The notes: generated from the sequence alone by a model not told the origin. 64,000 nt of DNA from Eledone cirrhosa (GCA_964016885.1 OZ024740.1:65844001-65908000), one strand, 5' to 3'. Counted from the stretch's first letter, positions 28,703 through 31,041 are shown. Made by a program: numbers and translations.

Positions 28703-29346
28703 TATATATATATATATATATATATATATATATATATATATATATATATATATATATATATATATATATATATATATATATATATATATATATATATATA
28801 TAATATGAGAGACTTAAAATAAGAAAATTATAAAATTAACTTACTTACTAAAATATCACTTCCAACTAATTAGTTTCTGGAATGGTATAAATATATATTC
28901 CGAAGAAGTGATATTTTAGTAAGTAAGTTAATTTTATAATTTTCTTATCTTACGTCTCACATATTATTGTTCTGCAACCCCATGCATTGAACCACATAGT
29001 TACTAAGACAAAACCTACATATTTGCTAGCATTGATATGCATCTGTATGTATATATATGTTACTAGATATTAATTCTTTATAATTATCTCCAAATTATTT
29101 GTCGAGCAATATTGGCCATGACTGCTGCTATGGTAGCAGGCCGCTGTCTTATTAGCAAACCACTTTCCACTGATTGACCTCGATGTCACGTGATTGATTC
29201 TTTTTGAATTTCCCACCGACGCAGAGGCAGTGATTTTCTCAATGGCTAGGAATTCAGTCCACGCTTTGCTATTTCCTATCCACTGAATTATTTTTTTAAT
29301 AAGTTTCCAGTGTCCACTCTTTGCCTCGATACTTAGATGAGAATAT

Positions 29347-29428
29347 ACCTCCCTGACGACGGAATGCTTCTCAGTATCTTCTTCGGAAAATATATTTATT
29401 CCATTCCAGAAACTAATTAGTTGGAAGT
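29347..29428 (+). ncRNA. Type I hammerhead ribozyme (family B)
   Basis: ACCUCC-CUGACGA-C GGAAUG...CAUUCC A-GAAA-CUAAUUAG-UU-GGAAGU. Predicted GUU cleavage after 29422. Confidence 0.75.
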
Positions 29429-29864
29429 GATATTTTAGTAAGTAAATTAATTTTATAATTTTCTTATTTTACGTCTCTCATATTATTGTTCTGCAACCCC
29501 ATGCATTGAACCACAAAGTTACTAAGACAAAACCTACATATTTGCTAGCATTCATATGCATCTGTATGTATATATATGTTACTAGATATTAATTCTTTAT
29601 AATTATCTCCAAATTATTTGTCGAGCAATATTGGCCATGACTGCTGCTATGGTAGCAGGCCGCTGTCTTATTAGCAAACCACTTTCCACTGATTGACCTC
29701 GATGTCACGTCATTGATTCTTTTTGAATTTGCCACCGATGCAGAGGCAGTGATTTTCTCAATGGCTAGGAATTCAGTCCACGCTTTGCTATTTCCTATCC
29801 ACAGAATTATTTTTTAATAAGTTTCCAGTTTCCACGCTTTGCCTGGATACTTAGATGAGAATAG

Positions 29865-29946
29865 ACCTCCCTGACGACGGAATGCTTCTCTGTATCTTCT
29901 TCGGAAAATATATTTATTCCATTCCAGAAACTAATTAGTTGGAAGT
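29865..29946 (+). ncRNA. Type I hammerhead ribozyme (family B, next unit)
   Basis: Same motif 518 bp downstream; cleavage predicted after 29940. Confidence 0.75.
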
Positions 29947-31041
29947 GATATTTTAGTAAGTAAGTTAATTTTATAATTTTCTTATTTTACGTCTCTCATA
30001 TTATTGTTCTGCAACCCCATGCATTGAACCACAAAGTTACTAAGACAAAACCTACATATTTGCTAGCATTGATATGCATCTGTATGTATATATATGTTAC
30101 TAGATATTAATTCTTTATATAGATATATATATATATATATAGAAAGTATATATATATATATATATATATATAATACTAAGAAGTTCTACATTACATAGTC
30201 ATAAAATGCAGAGGTGCTTCGAAGTGATATTATTTACAAAAATGATAAATCCGGTAAATGTTGAATATTATAATTGGCCAATTAGGAACATTTCGTTTCA
30301 AAATAATTTAAAAGTGACATAAATACACATGATAATGCTTCCAAAAACAGAATCACAAAAGACACAGACACACTTACACACAGACATACACACACGCAAA
30401 CACAAATATATACATTTATATATATATATGTGCTGGCTTCCCCCCTCGTTATCGAGTATGGCCATTGCACGAGAAAAAACATGTATATATACATGAATGT
30501 ATATATATATATATAAACATAAGTATGTATACGTACATACATATATGTATACAGACGTACAGTAGTATGTATATATATACATACATGAATACAGATATCT
30601 ATGTACGTATGGATTTACCGAGCATTTATTATAATGATCGGTTTGTTTGTAAACAAACATCCCGAATTAAGCTGTACAGTGTCTAACAACCATCGTTGCC
30701 CTTTTCTTCAACACTGACAAAGGAATGATGTACTAGTTTCAAGCTTATTAACTATCTTCAGCAACGTATACCTTCCTGCTAGATAATTGAACGTCTGAAT
30801 ATATATACTTTCCTCATGCATATTAACGTCTGAGCAGCCTAATTTGCAGATCGAGTGAGTTTTTTCTTTATATATATATAAATATATATATATACATACA
30901 TATATATATATATATATATATATATATATATATATATATATATATATATATATATATATATATATATATATATATATATATATATATATATATATATATA
31001 TATATATATATAACAATATACATATATATATATATATATAT

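Follow-up and report, generated by a model that had tools for sequence, protein, structure and literature searches.

A 518-nt hammerhead tandem repeat of Eledone cirrhosa and its probable relation to Hydra-clade PLEs

The family B array and its surroundings

The analysed stretch of 64,000 nucleotides from Eledone cirrhosa (OZ024740.1:65844001-65908000), referred to here as the window, resembles animal DNA and contains many PLE remnants, among them three Hydra-type ORF remnants. Within a (TA)n microsatellite (28701-28806 on the left, listed as 28701-28799 up to the inverted head, and 30116-30172 on the right) lies an array of a repeat termed family B. The array opens with an inverted head of 109 nt (28800-28908, minus strand), which copies unit register 29378-29486, from loop II of the hammerhead to end 1, spans an intact hammerhead cut site, and is 97% identical, in inverted orientation, to 29896-30004. 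A 4-nt microhomology, GAAG (28905-28908), joins it to the direct part (28905-30119, plus strand), which begins in register 29424-29428, 1-5 nt past the predicted hammerhead cut. The direct part amounts to 2.35 units: unit 1 (28905-29423, 519 nt), unit 2 (29424-29941, 518 nt) and a partial unit 3 (29942-30119, 178 nt), which terminates at end 2 (register 29601). The two junctions between units have the same sequence, and the unit, 518 nt long with 35% GC, closes on itself; its circular monomer is predicted to fold better than 60 of 60 shuffles (z -3.0). The 115-nt stretch between the two ends (29487-29601, plus strand) would be the equivalent of the "tail" described for PLEs (PMC11167929, PMC8557442), and the inverted head is likely a second cDNA. 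A sequence-only reading of this DNA had described about 2.3 direct units with (TA)n on both sides, as found here, and an inverted 5' piece, which is present although its length is 109 nt and not 105 bp. The combination of tandem units, inverted head and hammerheads is confirmed as a genuine structure.

Units 1 and 2 differ in 15 of 519 alignment columns. Among the substitutions between them (28905-29941), 11 of 14 are transversions, a proportion that is odd but not significant against the family spectrum. A read survey with one unit as query (29200-29717), covering four of the 17 runs listed, none of which was of RNA, returned 1992 contigs from X1, 66 contigs from X4, 28 contigs from X5 and 5861 raw reads from X15. 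Family B is therefore a high-copy repeat, present in at least three labelled organisms. No copies were found in metagenome or viral contigs or in phages, the latter giving only 36-nt AT-rich chance matches. Alleles 29349C and 29537C are nearly absent from the family and present in every unit of the window array, which argues that these units descend from one template.

The family B unit has no protein-coding region. The earlier reading had listed no ORF; a stop-free antisense frame of 132 codons does exist (29070-29468, minus strand, unit 1 only), but it is judged non-coding. A search of 1.84 billion representatives gave three matches, all summed weak repeat-protein matches with a best stretch of 14 bits, while the Atlas gave no match and Pfam only one below its cut-off (E 0.02). 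Third positions hold seven of 21 variants, with no codon bias (among the 40 of 136 variants listed), and frameshifting indels are common in this region of the family. The length of the frame is rare by shuffling (0.2-0.8%). It was also rejected as the C-terminus of a PLE EN (tblastn E 5.5, hhalign probability 0.1, negative HMM score).

Comparison of the unit in six frames with PLE proteins (from the window, six database relatives and locus L001) gave no significant match to EN or RT, and past hairpin 2 (described below), where Hydra ORFs start, there is only a 19-codon frame without similarity. The hallmarks sought for Hydra ORFs were CxCX5C, CxxC, CxH, RWK and DKT. Lacking an ORF with RT and C-terminal GIY-YIG EN, family B is not an autonomous Hydra-clade PLE. 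L001 (NZ_MPRK01000087.1) and L009 (JAAESD010000285.1) are Hydra-clade PLE sequences within bacterial genome records, most likely representing host or eukaryotic contamination. Of seven loci, L001 was the only true relative, and L002-L007 were dropped as relatives since their matches span 25-33 aa. Protein searches with two Hydra-type EN remnants of the window gave no matches.

Directly to the left of family B lies the 3' end (28565-28700) of another repeat family, also found at 37252-37570 and 38160-38306, which carries the 3' half of a hammerhead and a decayed bulged hairpin; it terminates in the same (TA)n, and microsatellites in the window collect several insertions. An internally deleted Hydra-type PLE (23472-25207) has an inverted head, an EN remnant (23788-24495) and a long-loop hammerhead at 25048 (U·U, GUU), and also terminates in (TA)n. 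At 31117-32355 and 43247-43438 a Hydra-type ORF remnant is followed by a compact hammerhead (U·U, GUU), and the copy at 43364 shows a bulged hairpin with a 4-bp upper stem like that of Hydra-1_Ajap. A third Hydra-type remnant (34161-35727) has a large in-frame insertion in the RT-EN linker and a broken hammerhead-like motif at 36881. No intact autonomous Hydra-type partner was seen in the window.

Other elements are also present. Two further hammerhead families have palindromic stems III, one at 45094-45520 (minus strand, core 45189) and one at 43860-44107 (core 43967, with an inverted copy), and weaker hammerhead-like motifs lie at 21423 (plus), 23053 (plus) and 44366 (minus). A non-Hydra PLE with stop-broken RT and EN is found at 60721-63813, 38306-39810, 49344-50067 and 32589-33499, with several truncated terminal copies; in its hammerhead there is an additional U, and the closing pair is G-C. 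A PLE with RT and GIY-YIG on the minus strand (93-5838) has no visible hammerhead, and what is repeated in inverted orientation at its far side is the upstream region rather than the downstream end. For one window PLE the nearest named protein is from Octopus vulgaris (57%). An intact-looking non-LTR RT ORF of 1141 aa with a C-terminal nuclease-like region (9971-13396, minus strand, partial copies at 7077-9868) is accompanied by tandem 3' duplications terminating in (ATT)n. Long inverted repeats occur at 48595-49180, centred on (TA)n, and at 60260-60631.

The hammerhead motifs

Two complete type I hammerheads lie on the plus strand, with CUGANGA, GAAA and UH core elements and stems I, II and III. 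The first (29347-29428, predicted cut between 29422 and 29423) pairs 29347-52 with 29423-28 in stem I and 29361-66 with 29402-07 in stem II, and has its CUGACGA core at 29353-59, GAAA at 29409 and the stem III palindrome at 29412-21. The second (29865-29946) has its CUGACGA core at 29871 and its predicted cut between 29940 and 29941. Stem II is GGAAUG/CAUUCC with a 35-nt loop, stem III is palindromic and the cleavage triplet is GUU, as the earlier reading had stated; that reading had placed a hammerhead in each unit, however, and only two motifs are complete because unit 1 begins just past the cut. A strict descriptor recovered these two motifs only in the window and none in 100 shuffled windows, and with a relaxed descriptor both scored 16, the shuffle maximum falling in the 11 bin (40 shuffles); both descriptors permitted a stem II mismatch, since the mismatch had already been seen. 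Rfam models gave no match at gathering score in the window and no hammerhead family at E<=10 in the locus.

The closing pair of stem II is usually G-C in hammerheads (10.1-11.1), and a GUU triplet is associated with lower reactivity. In family B the corresponding bases are unpaired (C29360·A29408). This C·A seems to be the state of the family, as neither base has a variant among those listed. Stem I contains a second C·A mismatch, at 29349, which is private to the window copy; the majority allele of the family mends the stem to 6 bp. The minimum-energy fold of the motif (-11.4 kcal/mol, within the -5 cut-off of Li et al. 2026) is not the hammerhead fold, and the stem II pair probability in the monomer is 0.06. 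As a dimer, hammerheads 1 and 2 are predicted to gain about 10 kcal/mol over two monomer folds, yet the dimer lies about 7 kcal/mol above the lowest-energy fold, so cleavage would likely be slow or assisted. A dimer mode, reported for PLE hammerheads, fits the 10-nt stem III palindrome (PMC4209133; PMC6765202).

Variation across the family spares the motif. Among the 40 of 136 variants listed, none falls in the 35 positions that make up the core and stems II and III, whereas the 86 neighbouring positions hold 12 (P=0.018); with the whole unit as reference the comparison gives P=0.065, with thin X15 coverage over stem III. The variants of stem I are one-sided and pair-keeping (29349, 29351, 29425), and a further one lies at the outer pair (29347); no two-sided changes occur in the hammerhead helices among the listed variants, and stems II and III have no variants at all. 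One contig of organism B carries a variant 5' half of the hammerhead.

Comparison with published hammerheads places these features in a clade. By our own count from File S2 (PMC8557442), 15 of 25 Hydra-clade hammerheads have a non-pair (pyrimidine) at the stem II foot and 10 of 25 have GUU as triplet; neither C·A itself nor a 35-nt loop II occurs among these 25, and C·A is found at this position in one Chara element of the same file, PLE-X1_cBra. The Hydra-type PLE of L001, which was located with the Hydra-type remnants of the window and carries the clade motifs, has a hammerhead in which the core is CUGACGA, the stem II foot U·U and the triplet GUU. Within the window, hammerheads downstream of two Hydra-type ORF remnants (25048 and 32224, plus strand) have a non-paired stem II foot, a palindromic stem III and GUU, and similar hammerhead-like motifs lie at 23635 and 43435 (minus strand); the non-Hydra PLE (61325-63813), unlike these, has G-C at the stem II foot. 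The non-pair and GUU are common in Hydra-clade hammerheads and therefore look like clade features rather than decay. This observation modifies an earlier caveat, which had correctly noted both and had suggested weak activity from them. Activity may nevertheless be low, by analogy with most PLE hammerheads (PMC4209133). The hammerhead of the axolotl retrozyme Amex2 also has a mismatch at the stem II foot, yet cleaves, and does so better as a dimer.

Insertion ends and bulged hairpins

Copies of family B stop before (TA)n at two positions: at 29483 in 16 X1 contigs (end 1) and at 29601 in one X5 contig from organism C, the same position as end 2 of the array. Next to each end lies a bulged hairpin on the plus strand. 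Hairpin 1 (29488-29511, with copies at 28969-28992 in unit 1 and 30006-30029 in unit 3) begins 1 nt past end 1 and consists of 4 bp, a UU bulge, 4 bp and a 6-nt loop, its lower stem being compensated. Hairpin 2 (29606-29626, with a copy at 29087-29107 in unit 1) begins 4 nt past end 2, is formed by 3 bp, a UC bulge and 4 bp, and contains GTCGAGCA at 29620.

This 8-mer, in the 3' arm of the hairpin, is the only one common to the units of families A and B and the UTR of L001. Family A was taken as the 595-nt repeat at 39909-41267 and 6105-7002 (minus strand), a tandem with an inverted head in (TA)n. In 2000 shuffles a shared 8-mer arose in 10% of cases, and one with four or more G/C in 0.35%; in the 64-kb window GTCGAGCA occurs in families A and B only. 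By eye, two hairpins with a 2-nt bulge are visible in each of the 5' UTRs of L001, L009 and Hydra-1_Ajap, and one or more in those of Hydra-2_Ajap, Hydra-2_Amil and Hydra-1_Crog. It is thus visible in four of the six published novel Hydra consensi (PMC8557442), and none was seen in the parts of Hydra-1_Obim and Hydra-1_Amil examined. The distance from end to hairpin 3' arm is 18 nt at both ends of family B and at the inverted end of family A, and the consensus of Hydra-1_Ajap likewise starts 18 nt before the hairpin 3' arm. Past the other end of family A a hairpin of poorer quality lies about 22 nt away (by eye), and family A uses its two ends the reverse way from family B.

Hairpins past both ends were found in 0 of 3000 shuffled units, and a relaxed descriptor gave seven window matches (five in family B, one in a Hydra-type hammerhead family) against about 1.25 in shuffles; these values are optimistic because the descriptors were written after family B had been seen. 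A strict descriptor recovered one of four outside hairpins. Listed variants of hairpin 1 fall at three of six loop positions and at none of 18 stem or bulge positions (P=0.01; stems against flanks, P=0.057). In an alignment of eight hairpins, 95% of the cells pair and three of five pairs vary on both sides. A covariance model built from the four outside hairpins ranked three family A copies first (E 0.09-0.28), and no family B hairpin was among its 16 matches at E<=10. The hairpin link of family B to the Hydra clade is good but not closed, and the hairpin beside each end is a candidate RT start-site signal. No prior description was found in the literature searched, a set to which most subscription papers and the Repbase reports did not belong; the main text of Craig et al. 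2021 (PMC8557442) contains neither "hairpin" nor "stem-loop".

These observations bear on the relation between the two families, which the earlier reading had considered unrelated and independent designs. The lack of overall similarity that it reported holds by local alignment (score 24, equalled in 40 of 200 shuffles) but not for the common 8-mer and the hairpin at the same distance. Families A and B share the same bulged hairpin 18 nt from an insertion end, as in Hydra-clade UTRs, so they are probably not independent, judging from these motifs. The family A hammerhead core is altered to UUGAUAA in all window copies, with the stem III palindrome and GUC kept, and the circular monomer of family A is predicted to fold far better than shuffles (z -6).

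Origin of family B and proposed mode of insertion

Tandem hammerhead repeats without ORFs are known as animal non-LTR retrozymes (PMC7229834), and retrozymes have recently been linked to PLE terminal repeats (bioRxiv 10.64898/2026.07.22.740005). Like these, family B is a non-coding tandem of few units with GC below 50%, and its consecutive units with complete type I hammerheads number the at least two by which Li et al. (2026) define a retrozyme. Its 518 nt exceed the 150-450 bp given in 2020 and lie within the 51-972 bp given in 2026. Animal retrozymes co-occur with PLEs and have been proposed as their non-autonomous derivatives. The earlier proposal of a non-autonomous ribozyme element is borne out by the high copy number, the absence of a protein homolog and the retroelement insertion marks; its wider claim of a diverse class agrees with the further hammerhead families of the window, but that class had already been described (PMC7229834). 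However, unlike the retrozymes of the 2020 set, the family B hammerhead is of PLE type, with a 35-nt loop II and no apparent canonical loop-loop motifs. A 2020 review describes such repeats as showing no motif that reveals their partner (PMC7761336); family B differs in its inverted head, its two fixed ends and hairpins that indicate one partner clade.

A tandem with an inverted 5' copy in a microsatellite is a PLE-type insertion, and nearly all Hydra-clade families insert in (TA)n, as do Naiads (PMC8557442). Family B shows the (TA)n insertion, the inverted 5' copy, a tail at one end and a hammerhead near the 3' end; these marks are common to other PLE clades and are therefore not diagnostic alone. 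With the Hydra-clade PLEs (PMC8557442; L001, L009) it further shares the frequent non-pair at the stem II foot, GUU and what appears to be the doubled bulged hairpin downstream of the hammerhead. It differs from them in lacking an RT-EN ORF, in a tail of 115 nt against the 30-40 nt described for PLEs, and in having C·A instead of U·U, a long loop II and a perfect 10-nt stem III palindrome. Taken together, family B is probably a non-autonomous derivative of a Hydra-clade PLE that keeps only the terminal-repeat signals. A broader and more tentative reading, somewhat short of being favoured, is that Hydra-clade PLEs mark both RT starts by a bulged hairpin just 3' of them, and that families A and B are parasites that keep this code together with the hammerhead.

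Alternatively, the unit could be the pseudo-LTR of an autonomous PLE, the locus consisting of truncated copies or a local duplication and the ORF residing in other copies. Hammerhead, hairpins, inversion and target are all features of pseudo-LTRs; X15 depth is three to four times higher over 29470-29545 than elsewhere in the unit, 81% of X15 reads continue into sequence unlike the unit, most of the loose ends lie outside those listed, and a divergent sister group, which could be the autonomous parent or another passenger, shares 29457-29551 with about seven linked variants and then departs. However, much of the X15 run-on sits at AATT ends, which we take to be restriction cuts. The unit closes on itself with identical junctions, and one X1 contig and 10 X15 reads span the wrap joint between units; reads pass through hairpin 2 into unit sequence, beyond which only the 19-codon frame lies, and the unit holds no EN or RT remnant in six frames. 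This alternative is accordingly considered unlikely. X15 read ends at 29289, 29418, 29457, 29594 and 29612 were rejected as ribozyme cuts, as they lie at AATT sites and represent library cuts, and nothing can be read from joints near the cut (29421-29672, three reads; 29342-29423, five reads).

It is also quite unlikely that family B is a retrozyme moved by another PLE clade or a LINE, its likeness to Hydra hairpins being due to chance or irrelevant. Such a reading could draw on the independent covariance model that missed the family B hairpins, on the other PLE clades in the window, on (TA)n targeting by Naiads and on the ease with which short post hoc motifs are over-read, but it leaves aside the 8-mer common to families A and B and L001, the unvarying 18-nt spacing at three ends of two families, the loop-only variation of hairpin 1 among the listed variants and the Hydra-like design of the hammerhead. 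Finally, a single PLE-type fragment, later duplicated at the DNA level like a satellite, with a silent hammerhead and a junction due only to arrest or microhomology, would fit the private alleles common to all units, the position of 29428 at the foot of stem I as well as near the cut, and the report of eight of nine tested Xenopus retrozyme dimers without cleavage (bioRxiv 10.64898/2026.07.22.740005), but is highly improbable given that family A forms the same array of two or more units with an inversion, its units matching more closely inside one locus (590/595) than across loci (559/595), and that family-wide variation spares the hammerhead positions among the variants listed.

For the preferred origin from a Hydra-clade PLE, the closest biochemical model is the Poseidon PLE PAc (PMC11167929), which nicks and extends both strands of AT-rich DNA in vitro and starts RT at two internal sites downstream of the hammerhead, the interval being the tail. 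In family B the sequence at the ends is UA-rich, and a bulged hairpin follows immediately 3'. Transcription would yield a multimeric family B RNA. Adjacent hammerheads in it would dimerise by way of their stem III palindromes and self-cleave, probably at a slow rate, to produce monomers, circles or incompletely cleaved multimers. The hairpins would then be bound by a Hydra-clade RT-endonuclease, which would nick each strand of the (TA)n target. Internal priming on the RNA, at the UA-rich site that precedes hairpin 2, could yield a cDNA of 1215 nt (2.35 units), while priming before hairpin 1 on the opposite strand could yield one of 109 nt; the two cDNA ends would likely be joined through the GAAG microhomology, producing the inverted head. 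Each hairpin lies 3' of its start site, so a template has to be tandem or circular if the signal of the downstream end is to be retained, a need that would explain why such elements come as arrays. Non-coding PLE passengers with head-to-tail multicopy insertions are also known from Chlamys MRC1, which, unlike family B, is green-algal and belongs to a clade mostly without canonical hammerheads (PMC8557442).

The long cDNA, as reconstructed, spans two intact cut sites and stops 1-5 nt past a third. A stop near the third cut would be expected for a partly cleaved multimer or for a circle cut during copying, and a random end would fall within that stretch about 1% of the time, for a single event noticed after the fact. 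The start of the direct part near the cut is a possible trace of cleavage in vivo. Arrest of RT at a fold is as likely an explanation of this 5' junction, because the event is single and post hoc, the position coincides with the foot of stem I, and the ends at other junctions of the window lie inside hammerhead motifs but away from the cut. At the four inversion junctions of the window, six of eight inner ends lie inside a hammerhead motif and only that of family B at the cut (by eye); a rule placing all inversion junctions at cut sites was rejected, with one of eight inner ends. In PAc, the one PLE tested, hammerhead cleavage is not needed for insertion (PMC11167929).

The class of repeat to which family B belongs has already been described; the new points here are a likely partner clade and a candidate signal for the RT start site. 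If correct, the hairpins would serve as a cis-acting label from which the partner of an animal retrozyme can be read, and would explain why such passengers need to be tandem or circular. The rule of hairpin and end bears on the mover of retrozymes and the RNA signal it reads, which are open in print (PMC7229834, PMC7761336, Li et al. 2026). In the same way, the 5' junction at the cut would be a trace left in the genome by hammerhead cleavage in the course of retrotransposition, and so bears on the role of PLE hammerheads in vivo, a question also open in print (PMC11167929).
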